Of a stretch of 64,000 nt of DNA, positions 365-5,415 are shown piece by piece. The stretch's first letter is position 1, and the number at the start of each line of letters is the position of its first letter. A model generated the notes under the pieces. The model saw nothing but the letters and a program-made list of their open reading frames with translations. It was not told where the DNA came from and made no database searches. A program made the translations under genes and the position numbers. Origin of the DNA: Candidatus Hydrothermarchaeales archaeon. Lineage in GTDB: Archaea; Hydrothermarchaeota; Hydrothermarchaeia; Hydrothermarchaeales; JAZGAD01. Location of the stretch: the NCBI GenBank assembly GCA_036444275.1, contig JAZGAD010000028.1:1-64000 (forward strand). Reading direction: 5' to 3'.

Positions 365-1837
365 TTAGCCCATCCCATACAAATCCTCAATCTCTTTCTG
401 CTCTTTTTCAACTTGTTCTTTTCTTTCCCTCGACGATTTCTGCCACTCCCCAATTATATCCGGATCACCGCCCTTGAGCTTGCCCTCGAACTTGTCTATC
501 TTAACCAGCGCCGGTATCCTCGTCATCAAGCCCAGAACAACTGCCTCACCAATATTCAGCGACGTCAACTGCGACAGCAAGTCGTCACTTAACCTCTCAC
601 TGGCCTGCTGCACATGCCTCTGATCACTGGGCTCTACCAGACGCATGATTATCGCATTGTTTGCCTGTGAAAGAGAATTCTGATCCAGGCTCTTAGGCCT
701 CTGACTAACAAGACATAAACCCACGCCGAACTTCCTGCCTTCCCTTGCTATGCGGTCTATCCAATACTTCGACAGCGTAGACCTATAGGTCGGAGCGAGT
801 ATATGCGCCTCCTCCAGGATGCAAAACGCTGGAGGCATCTCCTTCTTCTTGCGTCTTCGGAGTACCTTCCGCAGCACATGGCTCACGATCACGTCGGCAT
901 AGTCCTCATCCACACCACCCAGGTCAAAGACGTTGGCCTTACCCTGCTCCAAGGCATCGAGGATATCGGGTGCATGCTCGTTCAAGATGCCGCCATACTT
1001 ATCCCTGAAGTCGTCGAGCTTACCTATCACGCCGGATACAGAATTCTTCTCGGCCGGAGATAGCGCCTTAGCATCCTCATTTTTATTTTCTAAGTATGCA
1101 ATCATCTCCCCTACGAGAGAGGAAGAGCTGGAGCGTATCTTCTTGTCTGCCTCCTTATATGCCTCCCGCAGAAACCGCTCTTGGATGTATGCCTTCTCGT
1201 CTATGTTCACGAGCTTCTTCAACTCATAGAAGGACAGGTAGATGGGATTGAAGCTGGGCGTCACCCTCTTAACAGCTTTAAATTCTGCGTCTACGTACTC
1301 TGAGTGCATGTCGAATATGATGGGCATGCCCTTCAGCTTCAGGATTCCCTCAACGATGATGCTTACTGCATTTGATTTCCCTGCCCCTGTTATAGCTAAA
1401 ACAGCGAGGTGCCGCGTAATCATCTTATTCGCATCTACGCGTACCTCAACATCGGGATGAGCGATAAGCGTTCCAATCCTTATGCTCCCCTCGCCGAATA
1501 TCTTCTTAAGGATCCCGGAGTCGGCTCTCTGCACTTTCGTGCCAGGTGGAGGCGGCGCCTTTGGCATCTCTAGCTTGTCAACGTCGCCCAGTAGGTGGAC
1601 GCTGCCCCGGACGTACTGCTCCTTCACACCCTCAAAGCGGAGGATGCGCTCCACAACACTTGGATCAAGGATGTCTTCGGTAATTGAGGGGCTTCCGCGA
1701 ACCAGGCCTTCTATCATGCCCAGCACGGTTTTGCCATCGTATTCTAAAGTGACATACTCGCCGGATCTGGGCATTGTTTTAGAGATGAAGACTGCCTGCG
1801 TTGGAGATGCTTCCCCTATGCACATACCGAGATCCAC
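365..1837 (-). CDS. herA: HerA DNA-end resection helicase/translocase
   Basis: N-terminal HAS barrel, RHLAVLAITGAGKS Walker A, ILEEAH Walker B, REGRKFG and SQRP motifs; overlaps nurA stop. Confidence 0.93.
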   Translation of the reverse strand: MDLGMCIGEASPTQAVFISKTMPRSGEYVTLEYDGKTVLGMIEGLVRGSPSITEDILDPSVVERILRFEGVKEQYVRGSVHLLGDVDKLEMPKAPPPPGTKVQRADSGILKKIFGEGSIRIGTLIAHPDVEVRVDANKMITRHLAVLAITGAGKSNAVSIIVEGILKLKGMPIIFDMHSEYVDAEFKAVKRVTPSFNPIYLSFYELKKLVNIDEKAYIQERFLREAYKEADKKIRSSSSSLVGEMIAYLENKNEDAKALSPAEKNSVSGVIGKLDDFRDKYGGILNEHAPDILDALEQGKANVFDLGGVDEDYADVIVSHVLRKVLRRRKKKEMPPAFCILEEAHILAPTYRSTLSKYWIDRIAREGRKFGVGLCLVSQRPKSLDQNSLSQANNAIIMRLVEPSDQRHVQQASERLSDDLLSQLTSLNIGEAVVLGLMTRIPALVKIDKFEGKLKGGDPDIIGEWQKSSRERKEQVEKEQKEIEDLYGMG

Positions 1838-2871
1838 TATAATACCTCCCTACCAGTTTTGGCTAGTAGTCCTAATGAGTTGAATATCCCTTGTATATCC
1901 TTATTGGATATAACCACCTTGCGATGTGCTTTCCTCAATAGATAGGGATAGCCCTCGACACTCGTACTTCTAATCTTCTCCAGTATTTGGACTACTTCGC
2001 CTTCGCCTACCTCCCTCGGGATCTCAATGAGTAAGACGCCCTTCCCATCCTCAAGCCTTGCATAGAATGAGGTGAAGACCAGACTGTTGAAGAATTCGTC
2101 GTAAGCAGGAAACTTCCTGAACAACTTGGATACAAGGGGCTCCTGTAAAGGCTCTGAATAGCCGGATTCCTTTACCAATTTTTCAAACACAGCCATATCA
2201 GGCAGCTCACCCATCAGAGAAGTCTTGGAGGAAGTCTTTGAGACGCCCACCAGCTTGCCCATGCCCTTCTCAAAGAGTCTTTCAAGGCAGAATAGATATT
2301 CCAGGTACTCGAGGAAGGCCAGCTTCTCGTGCTTCTTCTCCTTGAATTGCTCTGCGAATCCATGTGCTGCTATCGCTACCCCTATTTCGCCAGCGTGTTT
2401 TTCAAGTTCTGGTAGCAAAGATAAGACCTCTTCCTTTTCTTTGGCGTTCAGTTCAAAATCAAAATCCTTGGGTGTGCCCAGGTCACTGCTCAACGAGCCA
2501 TCGATGAGGAATAGTTCGGAGGTGTCTAGTGCTTGCAGGGACGTCTTAAGCTCGAAGATAGAGCGGTATAGGGCGAGGCGCTGCTCAACGCGATAGGGGT
2601 GGAGAAGGTCTACATCAGAGCCCTCGAATTCCCTTATATTACCATCGTAGACGAGGGCAAGTGCATTGACGGCGTAGAGTACGAAGCTCTTGTAGCACCT
2701 GTAATTTATGCTGCCGTCTTCTGCTCCTATAGTTACCTTTTGCTCTTGGAATTCTGTGCTCCGCCACATTTTGCGTAATTCATCGGCATCCTCTAGATGG
2801 AGTAGCCCTTCAGCTTTAGCTTTCAATGCCTCTCGTTTTTTTGCAAGGACCTCGTAGGTGGTGTCAAGCAT
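1837..2871 (-). CDS. nurA: NurA nuclease
   Basis: AEDGS and LIDGSL acidic motifs, GVSKTS, GYPYLLRKAH C-terminal motif; coupled to herA. Confidence 0.92.
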   Translation of the reverse strand: MLDTTYEVLAKKREALKAKAEGLLHLEDADELRKMWRSTEFQEQKVTIGAEDGSINYRCYKSFVLYAVNALALVYDGNIREFEGSDVDLLHPYRVEQRLALYRSIFELKTSLQALDTSELFLIDGSLSSDLGTPKDFDFELNAKEKEEVLSLLPELEKHAGEIGVAIAAHGFAEQFKEKKHEKLAFLEYLEYLFCLERLFEKGMGKLVGVSKTSSKTSLMGELPDMAVFEKLVKESGYSEPLQEPLVSKLFRKFPAYDEFFNSLVFTSFYARLEDGKGVLLIEIPREVGEGEVVQILEKIRSTSVEGYPYLLRKAHRKVVISNKDIQGIFNSLGLLAKTGREVL

Positions 2872-2880
2872 TCCATCGCC

Positions 2881-2935
2881 TTAAAGTAAATCGCTGCCCA
2901 AGGGATTAAATATTTTTGCTGGTGAGTATAGCTTG
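2881..2935. repeat. 55-bp direct repeat, copy 1 (left end of accessory unit 1; also contains the probable nurA BRE/TATA on the minus strand)
   Basis: TTAAAGTAAATCGCTGCCCAAGGGATTAAATATTTTTGCTGGTGAGTATAGCTTG, 50/55 identical to 3548-3602; followed by GTTAGGC at 2949. Confidence 0.9.
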
Positions 2936-2992
2936 AATGGATAACGAAGTTAGGCGAAATCGAAACGATGAACGAACTGAAAATGAAAGGAT

Positions 2993-3433
2993 TTGATTGC
3001 CTTGCCTGAAAATAATAAACAGCCGGATAGAGATAATTCTGATCAGATAGCCATAAGCCGGAAACGATTAGTTAGAGTATTGTTAATAGTTGCAGGAACC
3101 TTTTTTGTAGGGATCGGAGTTGTTGGAATATTTTTGCCTGTTTTGCCTACTACCCCTTTTCTTTTACTTGCTGCTGCATGCTATGCTAGAAGTTCAGAAA
3201 GATTTTACAATTGGCTCCTAAATAACAAATGGTTTGGAAATTACATTAAGAATTATCGAGAAGGAAAAGGGGTTCCATTAAACGTAAAGGTTTTATCCAT
3301 TTCTTTTTTATGGATAACAATAGGATATTCAGTTGTCTTTGTAGTTCACATTTTTCTACTTAGAATCATTTTGAGTCTAATAGCGATTGGCGTTACTATA
3401 CATATCCTTTCTACTCGAACTTTAAAACAATGA
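2993..3433 (+). CDS. YbaN/DUF454 family membrane protein
   Basis: GIFLPVLPTTPFLLLAAACYARSS and WLLNNKWFG family motifs; AT-rich. Confidence 0.9.
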   Translation: MIALPENNKQPDRDNSDQIAISRKRLVRVLLIVAGTFFVGIGVVGIFLPVLPTTPFLLLAAACYARSSERFYNWLLNNKWFGNYIKNYREGKGVPLNVKVLSISFLWITIGYSVVFVVHIFLLRIILSLIAIGVTIHILSTRTLKQ

Positions 3434-3491
3434 AAATGTGATGATGACATATGCTTGAAATGGTTTCGGAACAGAAAACTTTTACACCTTC

Positions 3492-3546
3492 GCCTAACAG
3501 AGCGTAGCTGGCTACGGCCTACGCGTCACCCAAATGTTGGCTTCGC
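3492..3546. repeat. attC-like left arm, copy 1 (right end of unit 1)
   Basis: Starts with GCCTAAC (RYYYAAC); 46/56 aligned identity with 4451-4506; TTCGCCTAAC (3489-3498) is the exact reverse complement of GTTAGGCGAA (2949-2958). Confidence 0.8.
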
Positions 3547-3547
3547 T

Positions 3548-3602
3548 TTAAAGTAAATCGCAGGGCAAGGGATTAAATATTTTTACTGGTGATTATAGCT
3601 TG
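3548..3602. repeat. 55-bp direct repeat, copy 2 (left end of unit 2)
   Basis: 50/55 identical to 2881-2935; followed by GTTATAT at 3614. Confidence 0.9.
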
Positions 3603-3734
3603 GATAAAATATTGTTATATCAATCAACCCAACTGCCGCTATACGCAGAAATCGAGCCAAATGTTCATAAAGAAGAAGATAAACTTGTGGCATCATAATA
3701 GTTAAATTCGAAGAGAGATATAGGGGAAACTGCA

Positions 3735-4052
3735 ATGAATAAGATTAATGATATCATCAAGGAGTTTAGAGTGGAAATTGAAAAACTCTATGGCAAGAGG
3801 TTAAAGAATATAATCCTGTATGGTTCATGGGCGAGGAATGAAGCTACAGAAGACTCTGATATTGACATGGTTGTAGTTTTCGAAGGAGACATTACACCAG
3901 GGAAAGAGATAGACCGGATGATAGATATTATAACGGAGATAAATCTAAAACATGGAGTTTTGATATCAGTTTATCCTGTATCTGAAATAGACTATCTTAC
4001 TTTGAAAAGCCCATTACTCATGAACGTTCGAAAGGAAGGGGTATCTGCATGA
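3735..4052 (+). CDS. Minimal nucleotidyltransferase (MNT) antitoxin
   Basis: YGSWARNEATEDSDID (GS-x10-DxD); ATGA overlap with HEPN gene. Confidence 0.92.
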   Translation: MNKINDIIKEFRVEIEKLYGKRLKNIILYGSWARNEATEDSDIDMVVVFEGDITPGKEIDRMIDIITEINLKHGVLISVYPVSEIDYLTLKSPLLMNVRKEGVSA

Positions 4053-4435
4053 GGGAGGTAGCATCTCTCATTGAGAGGGCGAACAAGTATCTTAAAAGTT
4101 CCAAGATGCTTCTTGAAGATGGGGATTACGAATCCTCGGTATCCAGAGCGTACTATGCGATGTTTTATTCCGCTGAAGCTATATTACTTACAAAAAATTT
4201 GTCGTTTTCATCTCACAGAGGCGTGATTTCTGCTTTCGGAGAACACTTTGTTAAAACTGATACTTTCCCGAGAGATATGGGTAGGGAGCTTAATCGGGCA
4301 TTTGAGAAAAGGCAGTTAGGAGATTATGAGTACACATTCGTAATATCCCAAGATGAAGCTGAGGAAATACTTGAGGAAAGTAAACATTTCGTAGAGGAAG
4401 TAACCCGATATTTGAAAGAGAGTAAGTTCCTATGA
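4049..4435 (+). CDS. HEPN domain protein, partner of MNT
   Basis: SRAYYAMF, SSHRGVI, FEKRQLGDY motifs. Confidence 0.92.
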   Translation: MREVASLIERANKYLKSSKMLLEDGDYESSVSRAYYAMFYSAEAILLTKNLSFSSHRGVISAFGEHFVKTDTFPRDMGRELNRAFEKRQLGDYEYTFVISQDEAEEILEESKHFVEEVTRYLKESKFL

Positions 4436-4450
4436 AGAACGCATGCAGTC

Positions 4451-4506
4451 GCCCCACCGAGCATATCTGGCTGCCGCCTACGCTTCACTCAAATGTTCGG
4501 CTTCGC
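4451..4506. repeat. attC-like left arm, copy 2, degenerate (right end of unit 2)
   Basis: GCCCCACCGAGCATATCTGGCTGCCGCCTACGCTTCACTCAAATGTTCGGCTTCGC aligns with 3492-3546; starts 16 bp after the HEPN stop. Confidence 0.8.
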
Positions 4507-4653
4507 CTTTTGCACTTCGCTTCGCAATGATAACTAGGATAAGAGAGGACAAAAGGGCCAAGCGATCGATACCTAGGCGAGCTGACGAAGCTCTACAGGA
4601 GGAAATAGCAAGTTTTTTATTTCTGAACGGGATACTTTAGAATGGGTGAATGT

Positions 4654-4923
4654 ATGGCGGAAGAAGAAGTAAAGAAAGAGATGATAGGAAAGGTATTTAC
4701 CTATTTTTCCAATGCGAACGTAGCAGGCATCAAGCTGGAAGGAACCCTGAAGGTTGGAGACACCATCCACATCCAAGGACATACTACTAATTTCGAGCAG
4801 ACGGTAGATTCTATGCAGATAGATAGGGACCCAGTGGAGCAGGCAGGTGCAGGTGCCTCCGTGGGCATAAAGGTCAAAGAAAGGGTTAGGCCCAACGACA
4901 AGATTTACAAAGTTCAGGGCTAG
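4654..4923 (+). CDS. Small translation elongation factor domain II-like beta-barrel protein
   Basis: IGKVFTYFS, LKVGDTIHIQG, QTVDSMQID, VGIKVKERVRPND; GGGTGA SD favours ATG 4654. Confidence 0.85.
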   Translation: MAEEEVKKEMIGKVFTYFSNANVAGIKLEGTLKVGDTIHIQGHTTNFEQTVDSMQIDRDPVEQAGAGASVGIKVKERVRPNDKIYKVQG

Positions 4924-5008
4924 CTACGCTAGGCTGGGCACTTCGCTTTAATTTAATTGCCGCACTTCGTAGGTGCCGGAGTTGGAGAAAGAGTCGAAGA
5001 CGTGGTAC

Positions 5009-5254
5009 TTAGATTGATTTTTCATATTCTGCCATCTCATTTGTTACCCTCCCCTCCATCTCACGCGTGACATTCTCGCTGGTTCTATTCAGGCTCTCTG
5101 CAGTAGCCCTTGTCATCCTTGAGTAGAGGGCGAATACCACGATTGATGCCACTATGATGCCGCCAGCTAGTAATATGTATTCGATGGCACCCTGTGCTTC
5201 TTCCTCGGCTAGGAATTCTCTTACCCTCTCCCTTGCTAGTTCAATCCTCTCCAT
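5009..5254 (-). CDS. Class III signal peptide pilin (orphan paralog of 30484-30714)
   Basis: EEEA/QGAIEYILLAGGIIVAS (Q+1, E+5, hydrophobic helix); sequons NRT and NVT; TTTATAT box upstream. Confidence 0.88.
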   Translation of the reverse strand: MERIELARERVREFLAEEEAQGAIEYILLAGGIIVASIVVFALYSRMTRATAESLNRTSENVTREMEGRVTNEMAEYEKSI

Positions 5255-5415
5255 TTGTCACTAACAAAGTTGCTCCTTATGATATAAATTTGGTTAACAG
5301 ATTTAAATAAATGAGTGTCATTTTAAATCTGGGACAGAACCAGTGGAAGGGACTGACAGTGTTCTTTTAGATCTTGTTCTCGATTGGCTACTAATGCTTA
5401 ATCTTAATCAATAGA

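Follow-up and report, generated by a model that had tools for sequence, protein, structure and literature searches.

Probable remnant of an integron-like cassette system beside the nurA promoter of a Hydrothermarchaeales archaeon

Cassettes that depart from the standard anatomy are recognised in class 1 and class 2 integrons, where they include the truncated-attC and delta-attI types (classes of Partridge et al. 2009, as set out in PMC12901181). Cassettes may also settle outside their platform; bioRxiv 10.1101/2022.09.11.507474 describes cassettes entering at attG sites close to resident promoters, and imprecise excision events, between neighbouring points that are not identical, that rearrange the chromosome. 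Integrons and clusters of attC sites lacking integron integrases (CALINs) have been described in archaeal metagenome-assembled genomes; these carry toxin-antitoxin genes as cargo and have attC arrays with an attI site just 3' of the integrase gene (PMC9668308). Here, we report two tandem units with shared ends and unrelated cargo, lying between nurA and a small resident gene of Candidatus Hydrothermarchaeales archaeon (GCA_036444275.1). The stretch analysed, hereafter the window, is the first 64,000 nt of contig JAZGAD010000028.1, forward strand. The 1.75-kb interval between the two genes is probably a decayed, off-platform satellite of an integron-like cassette system carried by the same genome.

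As in delta-attI and truncated-attC cassettes, a site in the interval keeps only the R'' side of an attC, and in place of the right side stands an incomplete duplicate of the upstream insertion-site region, ending at G|TT. As in delta-attI cassettes, for which the same text proposes an origin by aberrant exchange at the R'' box, a cassette lies between two copies of one site (PMC12901181). Unlike the delta-attI examples given there, the duplicated block is about 75 nt of the nurA promoter and lies on a contig apart from the recombinase; unlike the unusual cassettes of class 1 and class 2 integrons as presented there, the host is archaeal, the recombinase is Xer-like, and any function of the site is putative. 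The likeness to attG insertions (Loot et al., bioRxiv 10.1101/2022.09.11.507474) lies in an off-platform cassette, a G(W)T-type insertion point, and a resident promoter close by; that work used IntI1-3 in Escherichia coli, whereas here we infer insertion from anatomy, and the attC is no longer intact. Homogeneous attC sites, much alike across cassettes and genomes (GCCTAACAGAGCGTATCTGG...CCCAAAT...CAGATACGCTC), and toxin-antitoxin cargo are shared with sedentary chromosomal integrons (e.g., Vibrio repeats), unlike which the window holds a two-unit remnant away from the array. The locus would thus be an archaeal record of the fate of off-platform cassettes, in which a promoter-adjacent cassette loses the foldable half of its attC, is duplicated with the host promoter, and persists as strain-variable, fixed genes. 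Two phenomena known from bacteria, the unusual cassette classes of clinical integrons and the experimentally described attG route, would also gain an archaeal counterpart, here in a cassette system whose recombinase is Xer-like and not an IntI.

The genome of the window (G000) is metagenome assembled, in 61 contigs. It was compared with 35 genomes of the order, 41 relatives, and two large collections of genome and metagenome contigs, and metagenomic contigs of four sequencing runs (X1-X4) were aligned to the window. NurA-based searches of both large collections found no close relatives, so the single same-family genome (G001; NurA, 59% identical) is the only near comparator.

Two units with shared ends and unrelated cargo

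The left repeat (L) was detected at 2876-2938 and 3543-3605 (63 nt, 56/63 identical, 89%; repeat search), and in a looser alignment its similarity continues to the GTTA of GTTAGGC (2949) and of GTTATAT (3614). The right repeat (R) was detected at 3490-3538 and 4449-4497 (49 nt, 82%; repeat search); with one 1-nt indel it reaches GGCTTCGC[C/T]TT, for a full extent of about 3488-3547 and 4447-4509. A previous reading made from the letters alone (the sequence-only reading) had described an integron-like gene-capture array here, and its anatomical claims were borne out: the 50/55 identity of 2881-2935 and 3548-3602 is right by direct count, the shared right-end element is the R pair (about 82% identical), and both cores are present (GTTAGGC at 2949, GTTATAT at 3614). 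So is the exact complementarity that it reported between 2949-2958 on the plus strand (GTTAGGCGAA) and 3489-3498 (TTCGCCTAAC).

The first left copy (L1, 2876-2952, no strand assigned) starts with TCGCCTT and holds the B recognition element (BRE) and TATA box of nurA (about 2904-2932, minus-strand reading). It runs into GTTAGGCGAA (2949-2958, plus strand), an R'-type core forming the left boundary of the first cassette. The cargo that follows is a gene for a DUF454 (YbaN-like) membrane protein (2993-3433, plus strand; Pfam PF04304, E 6e-41). The unit closes with R1 (3488-3547, plus strand), which comprises an R'' box (GCCTAAC, 3492-3498), an L'' arm, and part of a loop, and ends in GGCTTCGC. 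L2 (3543-3617, no strand assigned), the copy of the nurA promoter block, is joined to R1 at TCGCTTT and ends in the GTTA of GTTATAT (3614-3620).

The second unit carries an MNT-type nucleotidyltransferase gene (antitoxin-like; 3735-4052, plus strand; Pfam NTP_transf_2, E 2e-10; Polbeta, E 1e-8) and a gene for a HEPN-domain protein (toxin-like; 4049-4435, plus strand; Pfam HEPN, E 4e-22). These are adjacent small genes with a 4-nt overlap and the two expected domains, as in a predicted MNT-HEPN pair. R2 (4447-4509, plus strand), a diverged copy of R1 with a degenerate R'' box (GCCCCAC), ends in GGCTTCGCCTT. The cargo was described by the sequence-only reading as unrelated and AT rich, which agrees with the domain assignments and with GC contents of 34.4% (DUF454) and 38.3% (MNT-HEPN), versus 47.6% for nurA and 46.4% for the window. 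The L1/L2 repeat is not a chance match; its longest shared exact run is 19 nt, and an assembly join is unlikely.

attC-derived ends and a mobile first cassette

The opening ~22 nt of R1 are found again on contig C10 of G000 and in several relatives, at the head of elements that make up an attC-like family. Complete members are 70-150 nt long, have the form GCCTAAC-A-GAGCGTATCTG...loop...CAGATACGCTC-GGAAC-GTTAT, and fold as hairpins. Alignment of seven of these attC sites gave 15 pairs, 6 with compensatory changes, and none of 500 shuffles reached the observed values. A home-made scan based on a regular expression and stem pairing was uninformative: its strict version returned three matches and missed known sites, and its relaxed version found 39 matches in the genome versus 48-71 in shuffles. 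A covariance model of the seven aligned sites took its place. The covariance model gave nine matches in G000 at E<=1, namely 3488-3561 of the window, four sites in one array on C10, single sites on C27, C13, and C60, and a weak match on C12. The C10 array holds at least five attC sites, the fifth (150 nt) having been found by eye and with a hidden Markov model (HMM). Across the order, the model matched 18 of the 35 genomes at E<=1e-3.

R1 belongs to this family as a left half. An HMM of attC left halves matched it at 3488-3535 (nhmmer, E 4.7e-8), and an HMM of right halves matched nothing anywhere in 2872-4640, in keeping with the earlier remark that only left arms are present. The covariance-model match at 3488-3561 (24.3 bits) is the sole one in the window, and its alignment forces a right half; R2 went undetected by the model, and is taken to be attC derived because it is homologous to R1. 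Folding of L1, L2, R1, R2, and the R+L junction was no better than that of shuffles (z -1.4 to +1.3), so that the L''/L' hairpin is missing from the window sites, though the attC family elsewhere folds. Neither site is bounded by R'' and R' cores at both ends, the next GTT cores following the L copy instead. The first unit starts at a G|TT whose sequence complements its own R'' box (GTTAGGCGAA versus TTCGCCTAAC), and the second unit lacks such complementarity (GTTATAT versus GCCCCAC).

Two other derivations of R were considered and rejected. Its tail is not a copy of the first codons of nurA, as the same bases are attC derived in G025, a genome of a different family. Nor is R a complete "short attC" ending in AAATG|TT; it does not fold, and G025 places the deletion point inside the loop.

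The comparison with G025 covers nearly the whole first unit. Positions 2953-3535 are 92% identical to contig C119 of that genome, where a complete 90-nt attC (89.5 bits) lies behind the gene. The two sequences become homologous 4 nt into the GTTAGGC core and part in the attC loop (at CCCAAAT, perhaps TGGCT); from there on, G025 has the right arm and the window has L2. A contig of X4 fits the window from exactly 2949 and carries 84 unlike letters before it. The first unit is thus found in other genetic contexts, with a left end at G|TTAGGCGAA and a right end at the R''-L'' arm of the attC family. These alignments show the DUF454 unit, as judged from sequence, to be a mobile cassette of an attC-based system that has lost its right arm in the window. 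The identification as integron cassettes made by the sequence-only reading holds to this extent, R1 being part of a covarying attC family and the DUF454 unit having a complete attC elsewhere. For the second unit, homologues of MNT-HEPN were found in three genomes with 69-74% nucleotide identity confined to the coding region, and at these homologues the unit was not found as a cassette. In G025:C119 (L002), the DUF454 cassette and the next unit share an 11-mer, CGTCTGGGAGA, at their starts, a few bases past their GTT cores (376-386 and 1044-1054), and a short GTTTAAC...GTTAAAC inverted repeat, which the covariance model does not recognise, precedes the cassette.

It is very improbable that no integron is involved and that R and L are ordinary terminator and promoter modules, brought to their present state by plain segmental duplication or by an assembly chimera of two strains. 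R does end in a GC-rich motif followed by a T run, L does contain a TATA box, and the genome is a metagenome assembly in 61 contigs. Against this stand the match of R1 to the attC left arm (E 4.7e-8), the full attC of the same cassette elsewhere, and the unrelated cargos; the shared exact runs (<=19 nt) are too short to mislead a long-k-mer assembler, and three studies yielded metagenomic contigs that span or cover the nurA-L1-DUF454 junction.

The off-platform satellite that we favour is not a CALIN, which was taken as at least two attC sites within 4 kb and no integrase, because the window holds no complete attC and fewer than two recognisable ones. It does show the truncated-attC/delta-attI pattern: behind the left arm in R1 comes L2, which repeats L1 as far as GTTA. 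What has been duplicated is not an attI, and the likeness to delta-attI cassettes therefore means that it works like one, not that it is a member. Finders based on attC will miss such remnants.

Left arms without a matching right arm were also seen in G021:C37 (L014 1994-2091) and G004:C70 (L015 2428-2537), neither of which has a flanking duplication like L. In G021, an AT-rich TTTAAAAATAT stretch before GTTAGGA takes the place of the right arm. Right-arm decay seems common in this attC family. On C12 of the window's own genome (G000:C12:31788-32412; L023:5788-6412), two 46-nt "short" attC-like sites, in which R'' and the L'' arm are kept, L' is gone, and R' is present, flank a two-gene pair (putative HicB/HicA, by eye); this is a further off-platform, partly decayed cassette pair.

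A recombinase platform on another contig

Tyrosine recombinases (PF00589) are encoded in G000 on contigs C10 and C57 alone; the sequence-only reading had seen no integrase nearby, and there is indeed none on the contig of the window. The C57 protein is a distant, generic integrase. The C10 gene, which is split in the assembly by a frameshift in a G-run, heads a region (G000:C10:46762-58455; L022:2762-14455) with the layout of an integron-like platform: recombinase, an AT-rich region ending in ...AACGAGTTAGGCGAAAT, 7.3 kb of genes, and the attC array, all co-oriented. The gene block is bounded by GTTAGGCGA...TCGCCTAAC, and the attC sites sit behind short open reading frames (ORFs). The 12-mer GTTAGGCGAAAT has two copies in the genome, one at window position 2949 and one at the attI-like site (C10:47868).

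A second genome has the same arrangement. On G004:C32, an intact recombinase of 349 aa (65% identical) is followed by a homologous attI-like region ending in GTTATATGAAAT and by two attC sites downstream. In this array (L051 544-5587), ORFs of 473 and 324 aa precede the first attC and one of 311 aa the second, and the array adjoins a housekeeping-looking gene.

The family of the recombinase is less clear cut. Against the integron integrase model TIGR02249 (cut-off, 265), the G000 protein scored 144+106 bits and the G004 protein 230, the match being broken into two stretches on either side of about positions 179-232. The G004 protein exceeded the cut-off of XerA_Arch (237.6 bits; cut-off, 220; NCBIfam), and its best PDB matches were IntI4 (2a3v, in two stretches) and XerA. 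The additional domain specific to IntI was absent, unlike in the six archaeal IntIs of Ghaly et al. 2022, which carry it according to PMC9668308. A HARP-like N-terminus was weakly indicated (17 bits, below the cut-off), and the Xer-like recombinase may have a HARP-type N-terminal domain. The expectation of an IntI was therefore not upheld, the recombinase lying below the TIGR02249 cut-off and lacking the IntI insertion; that of a recombinase acting in trans found its candidate in the C10 gene, with its attI-like and attC sites. Because the protein is equally close to XerA and IntI, its putative role as cassette recombinase is argued from synteny in two genomes. Close homologues occur in 8 of the 35 genomes (E<=1e-10), G004 alone having one that is both close and intact, and XerA is above its cut-off in 2 of the 35. 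With both so rare, the C10-type recombinase could also double as the Xer of the cell.

The nurA promoter block and strain alleles

The gene nurA (1837-2871, minus strand; Pfam NurA, E 6e-33), which has orthologues in 24 of the 35 genomes of the order, has its start codon at 2869-2871, 4 nt from L1. Beyond the second unit lies the small resident gene, whose product has a fold like that of EF-Tu domain 2 (4642-4923, plus strand; Pfam GTP_EFTU_D2, E 6e-8; compared with G001:C163). In G001, this gene and nurA adjoin and point away from each other, with about 125-140 nt between them, versus 1770 nt in the window. This comparison shows, within the limits of one related genome, a divergent nurA-small gene pair as the ancestral state, G001 as the empty site, and the units as an insertion. 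The core of L1 (about 2904-2932) is identical by eye to the nurA upstream region of G001 at 22/29 positions, with a BRE/TATA-like GCAAAAATATTTAATCC on the nurA strand 33-34 nt from the ATG, an equal distance in G001. Comparable BRE/TATA elements were seen by eye ~30 nt upstream of nurA in many of 18 regions (24 loci filtered), and ATAGCAAGTTTTTTATT upstream of the small gene is common to the window and G001. Because L1 matches the upstream region of nurA in G001 with its BRE/TATA element, L is read as resident promoter DNA and L2 as its copy.

No other copy of L was found in the genome, the 41 relatives, or the two large collections, which were searched with an exact pattern and from which the window's own records were possibly excluded. 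L did not align to the attI-like regions of G000:C10 or G004:C32 and adjoins no integrase. The duplicated attI suggested by the sequence-only reading thus gives way to a nurA promoter block copied once, and the further copies that it looked for exist for the left part of R1 and not for L. L might conceivably be a decayed attC (TCGCCTTAA start, GTTAGGCGA end, 6-bp pairing), but no structure was found and CATCGCCT-like 8-mers are common (99 copies).

The two copies of R form a mosaic, with 21/30 identities in the left 30 nt, 19/21 in the next 21 nt, and 10/11 in the last 11 nt; the left part of R1 is similar to the attC of G025. Taken with the 56/63 identity of L, this implies that the duplicated block is the right part of R plus L. 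The attC left arms of R1 and R2 would then have arrived, or diverged, along with the cargo.

Strain variation was read from the joining contigs of X1 alone; uncovered parts of 3508-3843 in X2-X4 were not used. The X1 contigs are ~97% identical to the window across nurA-L1-DUF454 and then join 3482 to 4501, with four other letters at the join, and 3495 to 4572, with 23 letters there that resemble the spacer B before the small gene; the result is an allele in which DUF454 is followed directly by CTTCGCC-B. R1-L2-MNT-HEPN-R2 is therefore absent in that strain. The deletion end points coincide with an 8-nt repeat, CTTCGCCT, and the X1 contigs also have a 39-nt indel at 4532-4572. Contigs of X2 and X3, from two further studies, cover the nurA/L1/DUF454 junction at about 96%. 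The sequence-only reading had counted on empty or differently filled sites in relatives, and the gene content does vary, with an empty site in G001 and the second unit missing from the X1 strain.

We propose that a cassette was inserted at G|TT on the far edge of the nurA promoter, an attG-like secondary site beside a resident promoter, by the Xer-like recombinase acting in trans. Loss of the right arm of its attC would have immobilised it. Exchange at the 7-bp TCGCCTT found at the end of R and the start of L would next have produced a tandem copy of the [L-cargo-R] block. The cargo would then have been swapped, with L/G|TT serving as the left point of exchange and the highly conserved left arm of the attC as the right one. 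Such an exchange of cargo is our proposed reason why the left 30 nt of R are 70% alike and the rest of R and L about 90%. Later deletions between CTTCGCC(T) repeats would have produced the shorter metagenomic alleles. Most likely, the present-day units are passengers that have become fixed, encoding a membrane protein and a toxin-antitoxin pair, and do not form an active capture site.

Several points weigh against this account. No historical step is directly observed, the order of events is unsettled, and the short X1 allele may represent either an ancestral or a derived state. Its complete lack of R is expected neither from L-by-L nor from R-by-R recombination. A cargo swap is deduced solely from the mosaic identity of R. 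R2 on its own has no significant attC match (left-half HMM, E 0.4), and no attC was found near the MNT-HEPN homologues in the three genomes (best covariance-model E >3). The promoter orthology of L1 and G001 extends over about 29 aligned bases. By NCBIfam, XerA and IntI are equally near to the C10 recombinase, whose gene is frameshifted in the assembly.

The divergence of the copies bears on a variant history, in which two strain alleles, formed by independent insertions at the same G|TT, were joined by a single unequal microhomology exchange after DNA transfer, with no cargo swap. The divergence between L1 and L2 is 11%, against about 97% identity for co-occurring strains, TCGC[C/T]TT microhomology lies at the junction, and the locus is polymorphic in nature. 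We nevertheless regard this as unlikely, since R1 and R2 have a common truncation point and tail (GGCTTCGC), which disfavours independent insertions unless R was already present, and no MNT-HEPN-only allele was found among the metagenomic contigs.

The unit boundaries bear on another. An R''-like motif recurs at them, as CATCGCCTT (2874), CTTCGCCTA (3488), CTTCGCTTT (3541), and CTTCGCCTT (4501), with a further CTTCGCTTT at 4941 behind the small gene, and CTTCGC has six copies on one strand in 2.1 kb versus 0.285 per kb genome-wide, an enrichment noticed post hoc. The region could accordingly be an active, non-canonical capture site, in which the Xer-like recombinase acts in trans on L (as an attI-like site in double-stranded form), on the R.L composite, or on both, exchange falls at the R''-like C[A/T]TCGC[C/T]T, and the nurA promoter region serves as a second working platform. 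Besides the shared boundary motif and its density, both cargos begin at a G|TT at the same point of L, the GTTAGGC and GTTATAT cores are those of the family's attI-like and attC sites, the X1 deletion terminates exactly in two CTTCGCCT repeats, and attI-ORF-attI arrangements are described as highly recombinogenic in class 1 integrons in PMC12901181. The odds of such a site are nonetheless low: L has just two copies across everything searched, does not align to the attI-like region of the platform, and holds the resident nurA promoter; there is no folding signal, CATCGCCT-type 8-mers are common in the genome (99 copies), and the motif enrichment was noticed after the fact. The complete form of this idea, with the nurA block a working attI-like site, the R''-like motif the true exchange point of the Xer-like recombinase, and the whole an integrase-less mini-platform run in trans, is quite unlikely; were it true, the mini-platform would stack cassettes beside a DNA-repair operon, each with a copy of a housekeeping promoter. 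L and R.L are in any case concrete substrates for work on the specificity of Xer-like recombinases.

On the favoured reading of a decayed satellite, the capture array of the sequence-only reading survives as cassettes and a variable locus, and not as ongoing gene capture, the sites being without a right arm and unfolded. Its integron flavour was right, and "attI" and "capture array" are not demonstrated.

GCTTCGC stands at 3540-3546, 4500-4506, and 4519-4525, reading GCGAAGC on the minus strand, and also occurs in the loops of complete attC sites. GCGAAGC forms a very stable DNA mini-hairpin. No Rfam family matched 2500-5300 at E<=1. Downstream of nurA in the same operon lies herA (HerA helicase; 365-1837, minus strand; Pfam DUF87, E 1e-44; HAS-barrel; HerA_C). 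The variable spacer B before the small gene (4510-4641, no strand assigned) matches the G001 intergenic region by eye at 4597-4614 (ATAGCAAGTTTTTTATTT). A 65-aa ORF at 4443-4640 covers R2 and spacer B, has no Pfam match, and is probably not a gene. Behind the small gene, at 4925-4975, CTACGC...GCACTTCGCTTTAATTTAATTGCC resembles the junction of R tail and L head (CTACGC...GGCTTCGCTTTAAAGTAAATCGC), and two of the four genome copies of CTTCGC[CT]TTAA lie in this stretch, which may represent either a module resembling a terminator or what is left of a third junction.

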